A stretch of 64,000 nt of DNA from an uncultured Gemmatimonadales bacterium (GCA_963798085.1 CAWCRS010000007.1:1760001-1824000); one strand, 5' to 3'; shown: positions 56,728 through 64,000, counted from the first letter of the stretch. Translations and numbers: made by a program. The notes: generated by a model from the sequence alone, not told the origin.

Positions 56728-57882
56728 CTATCGCGCCATGCCCGGCGCGTCGTTCTCCAGCGCCGCACGGAGTGCTTCAGGCGACGCTTCGAACGTCCAC
56801 TCGCCGGCGCGACTCTGCGCCGCCCGGCCGGGCTCGGCCAGCAGCGCGTAGCGCACGCGTGACGCGCGTCCTTTCTTGTCCGTGCGCGTGGCGGCAATGA
56901 GCACGTCCGCGTGCACGCCGTCCGGCAGTTCGACGGGCAGACCGCATCGCTGCAGCAGCACGCGCACCAGTGCCGCCGTGCCGGGACGGGTCACACCGAG
57001 CGACTCGCCCAGCCGGCTCTCTGCCACCATACCGATGGCAACGGCGAATCCGTGCGGTACGGCAAAGTCCGTGACGCGCTCCAGCGCGTGCGCGATCGTG
57101 TGACCGAAGTTCAGCGTGGCGCGGGCGCCGGTCTCCAGCGTATCGAGGGCGACAATGCCCGCCTTGATCTCGACGGAGCGTCGAATCAGCTGCGTGAGCG
57201 CGGACTCATCGTGCTGGCGGATGGCACCCGCGCGCTGCTCCAGCCACGCGACGTCGGCCTCGCCAGCGAGCAGCGCGTGCTTCACCGCTTCGGCGAGGCC
57301 GGCGCGGAAGTGATCGTCCGGCAGCGAGCGCAACGTCTCCGGATCCATCACCACGAGTCGAGGCTGACGGAACGCGCCCACCAGGTTCTTTCCCGCCGGC
57401 ACATCGACGGCCGTCTTGCCACCGACCGATGCATCGATCATGGCGAGCAGCGAGGTTGGCACCTGCACACAGGGCACGCCGCGCAGGTATGTGGCGGCAA
57501 CGAAGCCGGCCAGATCGCCGGTGACGCCGCCGCCCAGCGCGACGATGCAGCAGTCCCGGCCGAAGCCGCGATCCAGCAGCTCGTCCGTGAGCTTCGCCCA
57601 GGTGCCCCGCGTCTTGCTCGCCTCGCCGGCGGGAAACTCGAACACTTCGCTAGGAAGTCCGGCGGCACTCGCTGCCGTCGCCACCGGTCGTGCGTAGCGC
57701 GACGACACATGATCGTCCGCGATCAGGGCGTAGCGGTGTGCCGGGACGTGCGCACGCAACAGCTCGGGAAGACGGGCCAGCAGACCCGCGCCGATCAGCG
57801 CATCGTAGGGTCCGCCGGTTTCCGCAGCGGCCGCCACACGAACGCGAAGCGGTGCACTGGATGCCGAGTCGCCGGAGTGCAT
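56728..57882 (-). CDS. aroB: 3-dehydroquinate synthase
   Basis: GEASK, LGGGVTGDLAGFVAATYLRG, PTSLLAMIDASVGGKT, LNFGHTIAHALE, HG.AVAIGM, DKK. Confidence 0.96.
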   Translation of the reverse strand: MHSGDSASSAPLRVRVAAAAETGGPYDALIGAGLLARLPELLRAHVPAHRYALIADDHVSSRYARPVATAASAAGLPSEVFEFPAGEASKTRGTWAKLTDELLDRGFGRDCCIVALGGGVTGDLAGFVAATYLRGVPCVQVPTSLLAMIDASVGGKTAVDVPAGKNLVGAFRQPRLVVMDPETLRSLPDDHFRAGLAEAVKHALLAGEADVAWLEQRAGAIRQHDESALTQLIRRSVEIKAGIVALDTLETGARATLNFGHTIAHALERVTDFAVPHGFAVAIGMVAESRLGESLGVTRPGTAALVRVLLQRCGLPVELPDGVHADVLIAATRTDKKGRASRVRYALLAEPGRAAQSRAGEWTFEASPEALRAALENDAPGMAR

Positions 57883-58108
57883 GCCGCGGAAGGTATCCCC
57901 CGCGGCCCGCACGCAGCAACGAAACGCACACGACTCTCTTCCGTTCAGGTGGCAGCGTTGCTACCTTTCGTGCGCGCGAGCGCTGCGGCGTCGGCGTCGG
58001 CGAAAAGGGAGAAGCATCGACGTCCACGGTTGGATGTCGAACAGGTCGCGTTCTGCGAGGTCAGCGGGCGCGTTTTTTCATAGGGCACGCGAGGGCACGC
58101 AAGGAAAA

Positions 58109-59152
58109 ATGCGAATCGGCTTCGCGTTCAATCAGAAGCCACCGTCCGACAGCGAGTCTTCCGAGGAGCCTCCCAGTCCCGCTCCTGCCGGCAATGACCG
58201 GTACGCGGAGTGGGACGATCCAGAGACGATCGCTGCGGTCGAGAGCGCGCTGCGCTCTGCCGGTACGGTGATTCGTCTGGAAGCCGACACTTCGTTTCCC
58301 GCCCGCCTGCTCGAAACCAGGCCCGACATCGTCTTCAACATTGCCGAAGGTCTGAACGGACCGAGTCGCGAAGCGCACGTCCCCGCCATCTGCGAGTTCT
58401 TCGGCGTGCCGCACACGGCGAGCGGACCGCTCACGCTCTGCCTGGCGCTGGACAAGCGGCGCGCCAAGGAGATCTTCCGGGCGCACGACATTCCCACGCC
58501 ACGCTGGACGGTGCTGCACGGGCGCACGTCGCTGAACGGCGGCCCGCCGGGTGCCGGGCCCTGGATGGTGAAGCCGCTGTACGAGGGATCGAGCAAGGGC
58601 ATCTCGATTGCCTCGCTCTGCGAAACGCGGGCGGAAGTCAGCCAGCGTGCGGAAGCGGTGCTCGCAGAATACGCGCAGCCCGCGCTGGTCGAGGAATTCC
58701 TGTCCGGCCGCGAATTCACCGTGGGCGTACTGGGTAACGGCAGGGCAGCGCGCGCCCTGCCCATCGTCGAGATCCAGCTGGACGCATTGCCGGCCGGTGT
58801 GCCGCGCGTGTTCGGCTGGGAAGCGAAATGGCTCTGGGACACGCCCGGCTCGCAGCTCGACATATTCCGCTGTCCCGCCAATGTCGAGCCGGTTCTGGGC
58901 CGGGCCATTGCCGACACTGCGCTCGCTGCCTATCACGCGTTAGGCTGCCTCGACTGGGCGCGCATTGACCTGCGTCTCAATGCCGCCGGCCTGCCACACG
59001 TGCTCGAGGCGAATCCGCTGCCGGGCATTCTGCCGGACCTTGCGCAGCACTCCTGTCTGCCCGAGGCCGCGCACGCCGCCGGCCTGGCGTACGATCAGCT
59101 CATCCTCAGCGTGCTCGATTTCGCCCTCGAACGCTACGGTATGGCCCGATGA
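58109..59152 (+). CDS. D-Ala-D-Ala ligase-like ATP-grasp enzyme 1
   Basis: YAEWD, VFNIAEG..G.SRE, DK, VKP..EGSSKGI, EEFL.GREFTVG, ARID.R, LEANPLPG; Shine-Dalgarno AAGGA. Confidence 0.9.
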   Translation: MRIGFAFNQKPPSDSESSEEPPSPAPAGNDRYAEWDDPETIAAVESALRSAGTVIRLEADTSFPARLLETRPDIVFNIAEGLNGPSREAHVPAICEFFGVPHTASGPLTLCLALDKRRAKEIFRAHDIPTPRWTVLHGRTSLNGGPPGAGPWMVKPLYEGSSKGISIASLCETRAEVSQRAEAVLAEYAQPALVEEFLSGREFTVGVLGNGRAARALPIVEIQLDALPAGVPRVFGWEAKWLWDTPGSQLDIFRCPANVEPVLGRAIADTALAAYHALGCLDWARIDLRLNAAGLPHVLEANPLPGILPDLAQHSCLPEAAHAAGLAYDQLILSVLDFALERYGMAR

Positions 59153-60105
59153 GAATCGCGCTGCTGTTCGACGACGACGCCGTGCACGAGGACGCGCCTC
59201 CGGACGAGGCGTCCGTGCTGACGGTCGTCCGATCGGTGGACGAGGCGCTGCGCGCGCTGGGCCACGAGCCGTTCGCGCTGCCGGTCGATACCGGTCACGC
59301 GTGGCTGCACACGCTGCGCGCGGAACATTGCGACCTGGTCTTCAATCTGTGCGAAGCGGTGGGCGGACGCGCGGAGCTGGAGCCCGCTGTCGCCGCGCTG
59401 GTCGAGCTGCTGGGCATGCCCATGACCGGCTGCTCGGCCGAGACAATCGGCCTGGCACGGCGCAAGGACCGGGTTAACGCCGTGCTTGCGGGCGCCGGTC
59501 TGCCGGTGCCCGCCTGGATGCGTGCGGATCACGAGCGCGTGCGCGACTGGGACCGCTTCCCTGCCATTGTCAAGCCGGCCGGCGAAGACGCCTCCGTCGG
59601 CATTCACCAGACTTCGGTGGCGAGCGACGACATCGCGCTGGAGCGAGCCCTGCGTTCCGCCCGCAGTTTCGGCCCGCTCATCATCCAGGAGTACATCGAG
59701 GGGCGCGAGTTCAATGTCGGCTTTCTCGACTGCCTGACACTGCCCGTCTCGGAAATCGACTTCGCGCAAATGCCCGACGATTACTGGCGCATCGTCAGCT
59801 ACAATGCGAAGTGGGCGGTGGGCTCGATCGATGATGTCGGTTCGCAGCCGCGCTGTCCCGCGCCCATTGCGGACGACACGGCGGCTCGGCTGGCCGCACT
59901 GGCCGGGGACGCGTGGCGATCGGTCGACGGGCGAGGCTATGGTCGCGTCGATCTGCGCGTCGACCTGAATGGCCAGCCGTGGCTGCTGGAAGTGAATCCC
60001 AATCCCGACCTCTCGACCAATGCCGGTCTCGCGCGCATGGCGAGTGCCGCGGGCATCGACTACACCAGTCTCGTCGGCCGCATCATCGAGGCGGCCCTGG
60101 CATGA
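59149..60105 (+). CDS. D-Ala-D-Ala ligase-like ATP-grasp enzyme 2
   Basis: ATGA overlap; VFNLCE, VKPAGEDAS.GI, EYIEGREFNV, Y.AKW, YGRVD.R, LEVNPNPDL. Confidence 0.9.
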   Translation: MRIALLFDDDAVHEDAPPDEASVLTVVRSVDEALRALGHEPFALPVDTGHAWLHTLRAEHCDLVFNLCEAVGGRAELEPAVAALVELLGMPMTGCSAETIGLARRKDRVNAVLAGAGLPVPAWMRADHERVRDWDRFPAIVKPAGEDASVGIHQTSVASDDIALERALRSARSFGPLIIQEYIEGREFNVGFLDCLTLPVSEIDFAQMPDDYWRIVSYNAKWAVGSIDDVGSQPRCPAPIADDTAARLAALAGDAWRSVDGRGYGRVDLRVDLNGQPWLLEVNPNPDLSTNAGLARMASAAGIDYTSLVGRIIEAALA

Positions 60106-60671
60106 GCGCAGACGGCGAATCGAAGCCGCTGGCGTCGCCGCGCATCGCCCGGCTGCGCCCCCAGCACCGCGAGGCGGTCGTAGAAATACTGCGCGACACC
60201 GGTGTCTTCCTGCCGTTCGAGATCGACACCGCACTCGAAGTTCTCGATGCCTATCTGGATCAGCCCGACCAGGATTACTTCGCCCTGGGCGCCTTCACCC
60301 CGGATGGAAGCCTGGCCGGATATGTCTGCTATGGTCCCACGCCCTGCACGGCCGGCACCTGCGATCTGTACTGGATCGCGGTGTCACCCCGCGTGCAGAA
60401 CGGCGGGATCGGGACGCTCCTGCTGCTGGAGGTGGAACGAAGGTTGGCCCGATCGGGTGCACGACTCGTGATCATCGAGACCTCTTCTCTGCCGCGCTAC
60501 GAGGCCACCCGCGCCTTCTACCTGCGACGAGGATACGAGATGGTGGCACGGGTCCCGGACTTCTATGCAAATGGCGACGATCGCCTGATCTACGTCAAAA
60601 GAATTCGGACATCCGATACGAGGCCAAAGCGCAAATGGAAACCTGGCAGGAAATCCTCAGGCAAAGCCTGA
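60102..60671 (+). CDS. GNAT family N-acetyltransferase
   Basis: ATGA overlap; GYVCYGPTP, DLYWIAV.P..QNGGIG, ETS..P.Y..TR.FY...GY, DFY..GDD. Confidence 0.9.
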   Translation: MSADGESKPLASPRIARLRPQHREAVVEILRDTGVFLPFEIDTALEVLDAYLDQPDQDYFALGAFTPDGSLAGYVCYGPTPCTAGTCDLYWIAVSPRVQNGGIGTLLLLEVERRLARSGARLVIIETSSLPRYEATRAFYLRRGYEMVARVPDFYANGDDRLIYVKRIRTSDTRPKRKWKPGRKSSGKA

Positions 60672-61759
60672 CAACGGTCGACGAGCTGGTCGACCGCTTC
60701 GGAGAGGCAAACGTCGACCGGGACGCGGTGCAGCGTGCCATCGACCGCTTCAACCTGCGCATCACGCCGGCCGTACTGGCGCGGATCCAGACGCCGGGCG
60801 ATGCCTTCTGGCGCCAGTACGTGCCCAGCGCGGAGGAGAACGAGGTGATCGACGGCATCGTCGATTCCCTGGACGAGGATGCCGACTCGCCCGTGCCCAA
60901 CATAACACACCGTTATCCGGACCGCGTGCTCTTCCTGGTCTCGCCCGTGTGCGCCGCGTACTGTCGCTTCTGCACGCGCCGGCGCAAGGTGGGCGACCCC
61001 GAGAAGATCCCGCTCAACCAGTTCGACTCGGCATTCGCGTATCTGCGCCAGCACACGGAAGTGCGCGATGTGGTGATGTCGGGCGGCGATCCCTTTCTGC
61101 TCTCGGACCGGCGCATCGAATTCTTCCTGAAGACGCTGCGCGAGATCCCGCACCTCGAGATCCTGCGCATTCACTCGCGCGTGCCGTCGCACCTGCCCGA
61201 GCGCATCACGCAGGCATTGTGCGACATCATCCGCAAGTATCATCCGGTCTACGTGAACCTGCATTTCAACCACCCGGACGAGCTTACGCCGCAGACACTG
61301 CGCGCCGTGGGCATGCTGGCCGATGCCGGCATACCGCTGGGCTCGCAGACCGTCCTGCTGAAGGGCGTGAACGACGATGCGCGCGTCATGAAGGAGCTGA
61401 TGCAGAAGCTCGTACGCGCGCGCATCCGCCCGTATTACATCTATCAGGCTGATGTGGTGGCCGGCGGCGAGCACTTCCGCACCGCGGTCGAGAAAGGTCT
61501 CGAGATCATCCGCGCCCTGCGCGGCTGGACCAGTGGCCTGGCCGTCCCGCACTTCGTGATCGACGCGCCGGGCGGCGGCGGCAAGATTCCGCTGCTGCCC
61601 GAATACGTGGAGTCCATTACCAGCGAAGAGATCGTGCTGCGCAACTACGCCGGCGAGGTATTCCGTTATCCGCTGCCGCAGGACGGCCCCGCGGTCGCCC
61701 ACAACGGCCCGCGCAACGGACGCCGGCCCGGCGAAGACTTCGCGTTCATGGACCTTTAG
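60635..61759 (+). CDS. KamA-family radical SAM/PLP aminomutase (lysine 2,3-aminomutase-like)
   Basis: HRYPDR, CAAYCRFCTRRR, SGGDP, HFNHP.E, QTVLLKGVND, PYYIYQAD, VIDAPGGGGK. Confidence 0.93.
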   Translation: METWQEILRQSLTTVDELVDRFGEANVDRDAVQRAIDRFNLRITPAVLARIQTPGDAFWRQYVPSAEENEVIDGIVDSLDEDADSPVPNITHRYPDRVLFLVSPVCAAYCRFCTRRRKVGDPEKIPLNQFDSAFAYLRQHTEVRDVVMSGGDPFLLSDRRIEFFLKTLREIPHLEILRIHSRVPSHLPERITQALCDIIRKYHPVYVNLHFNHPDELTPQTLRAVGMLADAGIPLGSQTVLLKGVNDDARVMKELMQKLVRARIRPYYIYQADVVAGGEHFRTAVEKGLEIIRALRGWTSGLAVPHFVIDAPGGGGKIPLLPEYVESITSEEIVLRNYAGEVFRYPLPQDGPAVAHNGPRNGRRPGEDFAFMDL

Positions 61760-61813: not shown

Positions 61814-63157
61814 TCAACCGGTCTCCCTGCAGCTCTGCTTCACGCCCGACGCGCTGGCGCAATAAACAGTCTGTTCGGGCACAGCGTCCGGGGCGAGGCC
61901 GGCGCCGGTAATGGTGATGCGGACGAGGGGCCGGTCGTCCAGGGTGAGGCGCTGCACGCGGGCGCGGCGCGGGTAGGGGTTGGGGATGGCGCCGGTCGAC
62001 AGGATGCGCGCGGCGCGTTCCGCGAACTGGGCGGCGGATGCGTCGTCGTCCCAGATGCTGGTCCAGACGAGAGCCTGGCCGGCGGGCAGCTGCAACAGAC
62101 GGTAGCGATCGCCGTCCCAGCCAGTCCAGGGCCGTACCATGCTGCCCAGATGCGCCTCCAGGAAGATGCCTGTCTCCAGCGCGCCCAGCGTATTCTCGTA
62201 GACGACCTGCCCGCCGTCGTTGGCGTAGCGCAGCTCGGTGGGCGCATCGCGCTGGTTGATGAAACGCTCCACCGGGTCCAGCACCTGCTCCGTCGACTGC
62301 GGCAGCAGCGGACCCAGCGGCGCGGCGCGTTGCTGATCGCGCGGCGTGGTGCGCCACAGTGTCTGCACGAAGGAAGCGCCCGCCGCATAGGGAAACAGCA
62401 GCGTCTCCTGGATGATGCGCGGGGCCCGCTGGAACACCGCGTTATCGCCGCCGGTTTCGTCGGTGGGCCTGATCTGTGCACCCGGATCGGGCAGCGACAC
62501 CGGGTCCACGGGCTGACCGGTGGCGCGCTCCGCGGTCCAGTCCAGCATCACCAGGGTGGCGTGACCTTCGAGCGCCGCCTGTGCCGCCGACTGGCGGTCG
62601 TTCCCCCGCTTCGGCGAAATCAGGGAATCGAGATTCACGGTCTGGTCCTGCAACGCGTGCACCAGCTCGTGGGCCAGAATCGGCACGAGCAGGTCTGGCT
62701 TCGAGCCACGCACGACGTAGAGCTGCCGGGTCTCCGGGTCGTAGTAGCCGGCGATCTGCTCGCTGTACAGGTCGAGCAGCAGCGCGTGCAGGTCGAGCGT
62801 GTCGGGCAGCAGGCCGAGCAGGGCGTAGACATCGTGCAGCCCTTTCAGCTCGCTGGGCGGAAGATCGCGATCCAGCTGGCCGGCGACCCAGGCACGCACC
62901 TCCTCGCGCGAGCGCAGGGCCAGTGTAACGGGCTGTTTGGCCTGCAGGTGCGCAATGCGCGCGAGGGACGGCACCATGGTGTCCACCATGGCGCGCAGGT
63001 CGGCTTCGGTCAGCTCCGTCGTACGCGGCGCCTGCCCGCAGGCAAGGCCGGCCAGAACCGCCAGAGACACGAGCACTGTCGTGGCCAGGCGGGGTGCCCG
63101 AAGCCGCGTGCTGGCCTCCGCAAACGACGCGCAGCAGGCGTGCAGGCGTCGCCTCAT
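61814..63157 (-). CDS. Lipoprotein, putative gluzincin metallopeptidase
   Basis: Lipobox GLAC; IAGYYDP, LAHELVHALQDQ, ALEGHAT, FPY..G..FV, P.STEQ, GWDGD. Confidence 0.82.
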   Translation of the reverse strand: MRRRLHACCASFAEASTRLRAPRLATTVLVSLAVLAGLACGQAPRTTELTEADLRAMVDTMVPSLARIAHLQAKQPVTLALRSREEVRAWVAGQLDRDLPPSELKGLHDVYALLGLLPDTLDLHALLLDLYSEQIAGYYDPETRQLYVVRGSKPDLLVPILAHELVHALQDQTVNLDSLISPKRGNDRQSAAQAALEGHATLVMLDWTAERATGQPVDPVSLPDPGAQIRPTDETGGDNAVFQRAPRIIQETLLFPYAAGASFVQTLWRTTPRDQQRAAPLGPLLPQSTEQVLDPVERFINQRDAPTELRYANDGGQVVYENTLGALETGIFLEAHLGSMVRPWTGWDGDRYRLLQLPAGQALVWTSIWDDDASAAQFAERAARILSTGAIPNPYPRRARVQRLTLDDRPLVRITITGAGLAPDAVPEQTVYCASASGVKQSCRETG

Positions 63158-63657
63158 GCCTGCGCCGTTCCGGTGAGCAGCTCGGTGCCGGGGAACAGGC
63201 GCTCAATGCGCTCGAAGCTGCCTTCTTCGAGGCGTTTCGCCAGGCGCTGGCCCGTTCCCGGGTGCATCAGCCAGGGATCCAGCTCTACCAGCGGCCGCAG
63301 CACGAACGCGCGGTCCATGAGCGCCGCGTGCGGTATCGTCAGATCGGATTGCAGCACGCGCAGGTCACCATAGAGCAGAATGTCGATATCGATGGCACGC
63401 GGTCCGTGGTGGAGAGCCGGCTCGCGCCCCAGTTCCTGCTCGATGCTCTTCAGCTGCTGGAGCAGCGCCGCCGGTCGCAGACTCGTGCGTATGCGAACCA
63501 CCATGTTCCAGAACTCCGGCTGCTCGACGGGGCCGACCGGCTCCGACTCGTATACGGCAGACACCGCCTCGATCGGGCCCAGCCGCAACAGCGCTCGCAG
63601 CGCGCCGGCGAGGTGAGCACGACGATCTCCGACATTGGACCCAAGGCCCAGATACAC
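63154..63657 (-). CDS. folK: 2-amino-4-hydroxy-6-hydroxymethyldihydropteridine diphosphokinase
   Basis: YLGLGSNVGD, YESEP, Q..F.N, IE..LGR, GPRAIDIDILLY, IPH...RAFVL.PL; start uncertain. Confidence 0.93.
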   Translation of the reverse strand: MYLGLGSNVGDRRAHLAGALRALLRLGPIEAVSAVYESEPVGPVEQPEFWNMVVRIRTSLRPAALLQQLKSIEQELGREPALHHGPRAIDIDILLYGDLRVLQSDLTIPHAALMDRAFVLRPLVELDPWLMHPGTGQRLAKRLEEGSFERIERLFPGTELLTGTAQA

Positions 63658-63670
63658 GAGCGAGCTCGCC

Positions 63671-64000
63671 TCAGATGCGGCCGTAGCGATCCTCCAGCCG
63701 GACCACATCGTCCAGTTCCGCCGTCAATGCTTCGAGTACGTCCACATCGGTGACCGCTTCCATGCGGTGCACCGTGCCCGGTATCACGCGGTAGCTCTGA
63801 CCCTGCTCCAGCGGCACCTGGCTGAGGGCCCCGGCTGAAGGTCCAGCCCAGAAGCGCATGGCGCCGCTCAGCAGGTGGATGGTCTCGTCCTTTCGTTCGT
63901 GGTACTGCAGGGAGAGCGCGTGACCCGCCCGTATGTGCAGGATCTTGCCCACATAGCGGTCGGTCTCGGCCCAGATCAGCTCGTGTCCCCACGGCTTCTC
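63671..64000 (-). CDS. Cupin-domain protein (mannose-6-phosphate isomerase type II C-terminal-like); start lies beyond the right edge
   Basis: EKPWGHELIWA...GKILHI..G..LSLQYH..KDET, PGTVHRM, DDVVRLEDRYGR. Confidence 0.88.
   Translation of the reverse strand, partial: EKPWGHELIWAETDRYVGKILHIRAGHALSLQYHERKDETIHLLSGAMRFWAGPSAGALSQVPLEQGQSYRVIPGTVHRMEAVTDVDVLEALTAELDDVVRLEDRYGRI

Follow-up and report, generated by a model that had tools for sequence, protein, structure and literature searches.

What do the four overlapping genes found at positions 58109 to 61759 of a 64,000-nucleotide stretch of DNA from an uncultured Gemmatimonadales bacterium (GCA_963798085.1, CAWCRS010000007.1:1760001-1824000; hereafter the window) produce? 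An earlier reading of this DNA, made from the sequence alone (the sequence-only reading), proposed that two ligases similar to Ddl (D-alanine-D-alanine ligase), a GNAT acetyltransferase and the aminomutase KamA make an acylated beta-amino-acid peptide. We describe here this cassette (ligA, ligB, the GNAT gene and kamA), which is a real, widespread and uncharacterised pathway. Judged from sequences and models, its product is probably an acetylated small amide of beta-lysine built by the two ligases together, and we tentatively propose that the final compound may be an acetylated beta-lysyl amide of a polyamine-like amine. The four open reading frames (ORFs), with a GC content at third codon positions of 0.74-0.86, lie on the plus strand with sites and overlaps (ATGA, ATGA and 37 nucleotides) exactly as first read, and all the motifs then reported (VFNIAEG, VFNLCE, CxxxCxxC at C106/C110/C113, YQAD, VIDAP and GGGGK) were found again:

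58109..59152, plus strand: ligA, 347 aa, a Ddl-like ATP-grasp amide ligase of clade A, with E34, D36, E80, R87 and E88 invariant and S161, G306 and S315 kept.
59149..60105, plus strand: ligB, 318 aa, a Ddl-like ATP-grasp amide ligase of clade B, with E69, D147, A148, W222, D287, A292 and G293 and with intact ATP/Mg residues.
60102..60671, plus strand: the GNAT acetyltransferase gene, 189 aa, RimI-like fold, family of 2R7H (Dde_3044), often fused to LigB.
60635..61759, plus strand: kamA, 374 aa, a radical-SAM/PLP aminomutase of the lysine 2,3-aminomutase type, without the C-terminal tail of the clostridial enzyme.

The linkage of these genes is beyond chance. With LigA as anchor, the best 80 of 598 GTDB loci were retained and the 62 with at least 3.3 kb downstream were counted: 48 contain all four genes, and the others lack the GNAT gene (5) or kamA (3), carry a KamA-LigA fusion (1), hold the ligases only (1) or have no LigB, GNAT or KamA match (4). 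Close relatives are over-represented in this set, from which the profiles for labelling the genes were also built. Independently, the GNAT was taken as anchor and the best 80 of 592 metagenome loci were retained; all four genes are present in 24 of the 26 loci with enough DNA on both sides, and ligB adjoins the GNAT gene in 68 of 69 loci. The survey of synteny called for by the sequence-only reading thus bears out the co-occurrence of the four genes. Titles of the LigA-anchored loci include Gemmatimonadota, Desulfuromonadales, Ignavibacteria, Verrucomicrobiota, Rokubacteria, Bathyarchaeia and Methanosarcinales. Among 41 relatives, 15 encode a close LigA (E < 1e-100) and one more a variant in the order kamA-ligA-ligB-GNAT; the order ligA-ligB-GNAT-kamA is found in 11 of 12 regions around close LigA matches, the twelfth contig stopping at ligA. 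In an even sample of one phylum (G042), the GNAT occurs in 61 of 201 genomes, 60 of which also have a LigB-type match, and it is distant from the ligases in 11 of 60 loci taken from this sample. LigA-type matches were obtained in 16/201 (archaeal), 68/201 and 69/301 genomes of three other phylum samples, many of the weaker ones being related systems without kamA.

Fusions tie the proteins together as well. Indeed, a ligase domain is present in 60 of the 62 longer GNAT matches (LigB-GNAT fusion), a LigA-LigB fusion also occurs, and KamA is fused to LigA in one Methanosarcinales record. The LigA and LigB subtrees have, by eye, similar lineage groupings. In most phyla the four genes are self-contained, and no transporter, precursor peptide or regulator recurs beside them across phyla in the neighbourhoods examined. 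That they form one conserved pathway, as first proposed, is supported.

The first step would be catalysed by KamA, which likely converts L-lysine to beta-lysine. Aligned to the clostridial lysine 2,3-aminomutase (LAM, PDB 2A5H), its residues C106/C110/C113, R115, D273, D310 and K317 correspond to C125/C129/C132, R134, D293, D330 and K337, and 181 of 182 KamA rows (longer than 320 aa, no stops, near-duplicates included) retain D273, the same count applying to D310 and to K317. We take Asp293 and Asp330 of LAM to be the site of the epsilon-amine. The protein, which is the sole KamA found in the genome, passes the broad family TIGR00238, and its subfamily scores rank AblA first, followed by the glutamate, AblA_like_2, arginine and EpmB families. 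Arginine 2,3-aminomutase (BlsG, TIGR04468) was rejected (304.7 against a cut-off of 600, both Asp and GGGGK being kept); in two proteins annotated as BlsG, Thr replaces the second Asp and GGGGK is missing. Glutamate 2,3-aminomutase (TIGR04368) was also rejected (373.2 against 650, both Asp being present); this enzyme presumably has Lys/Asn at the two Asp positions, and 0 of 121 genomes searched for a reference protein exceeded the cut-off. The lysine-type assignment of the sequence-only reading therefore stands, with both Asp in 181/182 rows and the second Asp lost in the BlsG references. A search of the genome for lysine 5,6-aminomutase gave no match, nor did the control genomes.

A role of KamA in modifying elongation factor P (EF-P), as the EpmB partner of EpmA, was considered and rejected. 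It had been stated that neither efp nor epmA lies nearby. For epmA this extends to the genome (90% complete), in which none was found, the best EpmA-family match being a full-length lysyl-tRNA synthetase below the cut-off; an EF-P gene, for its part, is located about 19 kb beyond the cassette, outside the window (C7:1841048-1841593). Its product aligns with Asn at the Lys34 position (PGNL), as does that of L142, and EpmB is the lowest-scoring KamA subfamily. According to one study, epmA and epmB go strictly with Lys34 of EF-P, and the Asn34 type is rare (2.2% of genomes without yjeA/yjeK) (PMC2821294). EF-P modification is unlikely because the best EpmA match is a lysyl-tRNA synthetase and this EF-P carries Asn34.

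Which bonds would the two ligases form? Both match Pfam Dala_Dala_lig_C and both score under every listed Ddl/Van cut-off (LigA 158.5 and LigB 134.7 against 243, among the best 25 of 35 and 33 families). Residues were mapped on E. coli DdlB in alignments of 237 LigA and 222 LigB rows. His63 of the DdlB LHG motif is replaced by Glu in 237/237 LigA and 221/222 LigB rows, and Tyr216 by Trp in both window ligases; we assume that these two DdlB residues belong to the first D-Ala site. The ATP-grasp set (K97, K144, E187, R255, E270 and N272) is kept in both, its Lys, Arg, Glu and Asn being near-invariant in the alignments, so both ligases are likely active. E34/D36 are present in 236 of 237 LigA rows, R87 and E88 are also invariant, Ser is kept at DdlB Ser281 in 222/237, and G306 and S315 are conserved. 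In LigB, Asp stands at the positions of DdlB Gly149 (D147, 189/222) and Gly276 (D287, 180/222), Ser150 is replaced by Ala or Gly (222/222), Ser281 by Ala (188/222) and Leu282 by Gly (222/222). Ser281 is presumably the residue of DdlB that binds the acceptor carboxylate. Given these presumed roles of the mapped DdlB residues, both ligases would take cationic substrates; the acceptor of LigA would carry a carboxylate, and that of LigB would possibly be carboxylate-free.

The phylogeny of the ligases against Ddl, suggested earlier, was run (FastTree without bootstrap, like all our trees). Canonical Ddl (14 rows) forms its own 100-support clade and LigA and LigB group apart from Ddl and from each other, in a tree containing no Van ligases; LigB is not resolved as a single supported clade. 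The LigB model (pLDDT 96) matched only Ddl among the structures listed (TM-score 0.81-0.84), and only Ddl-named clusters matched in the ESM Atlas. The host has a canonical ddl separate from the cassette (C7:1900218-1901243), whose neighbours, ORFs annotated by eye, are cysteine/cystathionine synthase-like and rhomboid-like genes, with no dcw cluster. The view that the ligases are divergent and not cell-wall Ddl thus gains from the Glu in place of His63, the clades, the cut-offs and the separate ddl; its argument from a position outside any mur/dcw cluster falls, because the canonical ddl of the genome is also flanked by non-mur genes, which leaves that position without discriminating value. 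That LigA and LigB would not be D-Ala-D-Ala ligases is supported.

The GNAT has weak RimI-like matches, RimI being the nearest named family, weakly, in 62 of 62 members. Its profile matches PDB 2R7H (Dde_3044 of Desulfovibrio alaskensis G20; E 5e-50; predicted fold rmsd 1.2-1.5), a structural-genomics entry that carries a putative name only. Published text on Dde_3047 deals with a phosphatase unrelated to the cassette. In P0308 a cassette-type GNAT is fused to a methyltransferase domain.

Polyamine genes adjoin the ligases in part of the family. In L116, genes for a DHS-like protein, an agmatinase and a pyruvoyl arginine decarboxylase, all passing NCBIfam cut-offs, are linked to ligA-ligB by overlaps of 4 nt. 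Of the 66 G042-sample genomes with an examined ligase locus, 11 have genes for agmatinase and arginine decarboxylase directly upstream of the ligases, giving with L116 12 Desulfobacterota-type genomes; a homospermidine-synthase-like (DHS-like) gene often accompanies them. One gene stands between the polyamine genes and the ligases in L270, and kamA belongs to the same run as both in L343 and L344. The polyamine-linked LigAs share a 100-support subclade with the window LigA. Bacterial DHS-like proteins can be homospermidine synthases (PMC9992855). The idea that polyamine genes replace kamA was rejected: in each of the 5 such genomes that were checked, a KamA is encoded elsewhere, and L343 and L344 carry both. 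L079 apparently belongs to the same genome as L284.

An accessory protein of about 580 aa combines an N-terminal part that looks GNAT-like by eye with an acetylpolyamine-amidohydrolase-like domain; its best PDB match is the acetylpolyamine amidohydrolase 6PHR (243 bits), and no NCBIfam family matched it at 1e-10. The gene of this deacetylase lies within the cassette or next to it in 4 of 60 loci, and likewise in L107, L122, L199 and L257, it follows kamA in L173 and L181, and the protein is fused to the cassette GNAT in P0326. Deacetylase carriers are cassette-positive in 8/8 cases among the 41 relatives (16/41 positive overall) and in 9/10 cases in the G042 sample (61/201 positive).

From the linkage, fusions, families, active-site residues, neighbours and co-occurrence observed above, we infer substrates, step order, product and role as follows. 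KamA would likely convert L-lysine to beta-lysine, which LigA would activate with ATP and join to an amino-acid acceptor. LigB would then likely couple the resulting carboxylate to a carboxylate-free cationic amine (such as putrescine, agmatine or homospermidine), both amide bonds being formed via acyl-phosphates, and the GNAT would likely acetylate a free amine. In the minority of carriers with the accessory deacetylase, this enzyme would strip the acetyl cap, so the cell could store a masked polycation and then release it; candidate roles are a polycation store, a stress solute or a signal. Beyond the earlier proposal, the evidence tilts towards a polyamine-like acceptor and a reversible acetyl cap.

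Several observations weigh against this scheme. Agmatinase and decarboxylase genes are adjacent in 0/40 loci of the three other phylum samples, the link having been seen in a single phylum, and no other locus examined earlier has adjacent polyamine genes. The tree is compatible with a single origin of the link (3 changes, 1 forced), and other neighbours are common to some of these loci, so that a single arrangement may have been passed on by descent. In the genome of the window, agmatinase and DHS-like genes are unlinked to the cassette, and the deacetylase copy (C5:555017-556778) is unlinked and frameshifted. This copy, about 55% identical to the cassette-associated deacetylase, has a one-base frameshift near 555536 and is a pseudogene or an assembly error. 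Fisher p values of about 1e-4 for both co-occurrence samples are overstated, the sampled genomes being kin. D147 and D287 of LigB are replaced by His or Cys in 28 and 41 rows; the extra Asp would fit either the side chain of beta-lysine or a polyamine, a carboxylate could still be held in LigB by backbone NH groups, and a deacetylase of the acetylpolyamine type would be equally compatible with the side chain of beta-lysine. The GNAT is missing (5/62) or replaced (a different GNAT in 5/7 archaeal loci) in some loci, and KamA scores below the AblA cut-off (TIGR03820; 435.7 against 525.4, other cassette KamAs reaching 433-495).

A close rival, possible in our view, is the sequence-only reading itself in the form of an acetylated short peptide of amino acids only (acetyl-beta-Lys-beta-Lys, a beta-lysine oligomer or beta-Lys-Xaa-Yaa), acting as an osmolyte similar to N-acetylglutaminylglutamine amide (NAGGN). 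The self-contained four genes in most phyla, the carboxylate-binding Ser kept in LigA and the fold of both ligases, nearest to Ddl dipeptide ligases, would suit such a peptide, and the enzyme Ngg, which acetylates and ligates glutamine (PMC8070244), is a precedent. However, Ser281 is lost from LigB, which has two additional Asp, the ligases of 12 genomes are coupled to polyamine genes, and the accessory deacetylase is closest to acetylpolyamine amidohydrolases. Thus, of the pathway first proposed, the single conserved unit and the lysine-type KamA stand, whereas for the plain amino-acid peptide the evidence tilts to a polyamine-like amide.

That the two ligases load beta-lysine onto a macromolecule (a protein, a lipid, a surface polymer or a precursor of peptidoglycan), with the GNAT capping it, is unlikely. 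RimI, the weak nearest family of the GNAT, acetylates protein N-termini, certain ATP-grasp enzymes have been connected with the modification of proteins or surfaces (PMC12632600), and nucleotide-sugar genes follow the cassette in L343 (ORFs annotated by eye). Against this, no substrate, glycosyltransferase or export gene recurs across phyla and the cassette also occurs in archaea. The Ddl-type fold, moreover, acts on small-molecule substrates.

More improbable still is that the scheme holds but that the aminomutase, instead of lysine, takes a different basic amino acid, namely ornithine, arginine or a derivative of lysine. KamA is under the AblA cut-off and its match ends at 2A5H residue 368, so that the C-terminal multimerisation domain is absent, and Asp occupies the position of Cys268. 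The Zn-motif pattern missed KamA but, having missed the AblA references as well, is uninformative. Window KamA is separated from the AblA references in a clade with support 99, in which 42 of the 43 rows come from cassettes, and cassette KamAs overall are not one clade (60/181 rows sampled in this tree); distant ligase relatives, in turn, lie beside diaminopropionate, diaminobutyrate or beta-alanine genes. Both Asp presumed to bind the side chain are nevertheless kept, unlike in BlsG, and AblA tops the score order.

An AblAB-type role for KamA and the GNAT seems very improbable: an aminomutase next to an acetyltransferase is indeed the AblAB arrangement (PMC3543383), but the GNAT has no AblB family match (best 25 of 27 families), which led us to reject it as AblB/YodP, its profile scores only 4.8 and 3.0 bits on two AblB proteins, and it is tied to LigB (68/69 adjacent, 60/62 longer matches with a ligase domain). 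Finally, that the ligases would be alternative cell-wall D-Ala-D-X ligases (Ddl/Van) is hardly credible: database names, best family, structure and fold matches all say Ddl, but both scores fall below all listed cut-offs, His63 and Tyr216 have become Glu and Trp, Ddl is a separate 100-support clade, the genome has its own ddl and archaea carry the ligases.

The flanking DNA shows how the cassette is delimited. By the names of its protein matches, the window would come from a Gemmatimonadota host that is Longimicrobiales-like. A 3-dehydroquinate synthase gene (56728-57912, minus strand) diverges from it, with the same neighbour in 10 related loci. Downstream, a convergent gene (61814-63157, minus strand) with a weak DUF6782 metallopeptidase match below the cut-off recurs in 7 related loci and is preceded by folK (63154-63708, minus strand). 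The cassette is a bounded unit because the upstream gene is divergent and the convergent downstream gene unrelated. Two elements were noted before ligA:

58047..58085, plus strand: terminator-like leader, putative attenuator, made of a hairpin (58047-58072) and a T-tract (58073-58078), then CATAGGG.
57959..57967, plus strand: extended -10-like TGCTACCTT, present as a sequence, not conserved, role unsupported.

The hairpin followed by TTTTTTCATAGGG ends 24 nt before ligA. Of 14 Longimicrobiales-like leaders, 10 have a hairpin with T-tract (one of them at another position), compared with 3 of 140 shuffles; for other loci with ligA first the counts are 19/131, compared with 55/1310 shuffles. Taken alone, the hairpin of the window leader is no more stable than shuffles (z 0.14), covariation is weak (2/6 pairs), and no Rfam riboswitch or leader RNA matched in 10 loci or in window positions 57800-58200 (E up to 5). 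An attenuator is plausible here because the upstream gene is divergent, and we regard the terminator-like leader as a possible candidate. As for the extended -10-like element, the sequence is there as first read, and its role as a promoter is unsupported because the pattern is absent from relatives (0/13 upstream regions) and a sigma-70 scan of the window gave no flag there; TGnTAnnnT occurs 10 times in 128 kb, both strands.

Variants and relatives of the cassette were also encountered. In the archaeal form (L369-L375, L129 and L133), kamA-ligA is convergent with ligB, and 5 of 7 loci have another GNAT close by, apparently in exchange for the usual acetyltransferase. In L331-L333 and L336-L338, about 4 kb separate ligA from kamA-ligB (sensor and response-regulator genes in L331) and the GNAT gene is elsewhere in the genome. 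A kamA-ligA pair (L031:1778-4032) lies on a 31.6-kb IMG/VR contig, and a third ATP-grasp gene, weakly RimK-like, is near the cassette at L270:5134-6060 and L199:780-1757. Sister systems without kamA (L048, L380-L383 and L388) have a ligase fused to or followed by a peptidase, DmpA-like by eye, and a separate ligase clade (L049, L051-L054 and L345), also without kamA, adjoins an unnamed conserved gene. Distant single ligases are encoded on plasmids L033 (Thioflavicoccus), L034 (Mesorhizobium) and L032 and L035 (rhizobial), beside either diaminobutyrate transaminase and sbnA/sbnB-like genes with KamA, or panD with an aminomutase; such neighbours suggest that the family tends towards use of diamino or beta-amino acids.

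Compared with known systems, the cassette resembles AsnO-Ngg, which makes NAGGN, in that its product, too, would be a small N-acetylated amide made without a nonribosomal peptide synthetase; Ngg acetylates and forms the peptide bond (PMC8070244), as the LigB-GNAT fusions suggest for the cassette. It differs by its two Ddl-type ligases, its radical-SAM aminomutase and acidic active sites pointing to cationic substrates, and no AsnO amidotransferase was found as a recurring fifth gene in the neighbourhoods examined. Like AblA/AblB (KamA/YodP), which make N-epsilon-acetyl-beta-lysine, it places a lysine 2,3-aminomutase beside an acetyltransferase, but its GNAT does not belong to AblB, its KamA is shorter and does not reach the AblA cut-off, and the unit also includes two ligases. 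Blasticidin-type clusters also combine a KamA-family protein (BlsG) with an ATP-dependent carboxylate-amine ligase of the ATP-grasp type, which presumably uses the beta-amino acid; there, however, BlsG lacks the second Asp and GGGGK, the ligase is very distant from LigA and LigB, and the acceptor is a nucleoside. Glutathionylspermidine synthetase likewise forms an amide bond to a polyamine at the expense of ATP, but it belongs to a different ligase family (the cassette ligases have no such Pfam match), and the donor of the cassette would be beta-lysine-based and acetyl-capped. From the clustering of that synthetase with genes for homospermidine synthase, a polyamine conjugate has been deduced in print (PMC9992855). 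Ddl/Van share the fold and the ATP/Mg residues, and the cassette ligases differ in substrate-site residues, clade, cut-offs and gene context. The shortened aminomutase without C-terminal domain recalls EpmB, as described for YjeK (PMC2821294), whereas the cassette host has no epmA found and an Asn34 EF-P. Full-text searches, judged from listings and abstract starts and with subscription papers and supplements outside their scope, returned no description of the cassette, and the comparative-genomics account of this neighbourhood mentioned by the sequence-only reading was not found in the literature searched.

The cassette is common: 15 of the 41 relatives encode a close LigA, 61 of 201 genomes sampled from one phylum have the GNAT, and a LigA-type match is present in 16 of 201 archaeal genomes. 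Since database entries regularly call its ligases "D-alanine-D-alanine ligase", misannotation of many genes is likely. The crystal structure available for the GNAT family from the cultured Desulfovibrio alaskensis G20 (2R7H, Dde_3044) makes the proposed reading directly testable, and ligases accepting beta-amino acids or diamines would be of biocatalytic interest. More speculatively, and rather doubtful when taken as a whole, the cassette may define an undescribed class of beta-lysyl-polyamine conjugates in many Gemmatimonadota, Desulfobacterota, Ignavibacteria, other phyla and Bathyarchaeia, made by two Ddl paralogues under a wrong annotation and switched between masked and free forms by the GNAT and the deacetylase and governed in Longimicrobiales-like hosts by an uncatalogued leader attenuator. 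If true, the pathway would extend the uses of beta-lysine beyond fermentation, EF-P modification, antibiotics and the osmolyte of AblAB, and its product might be a polyamine conjugate of a new kind.

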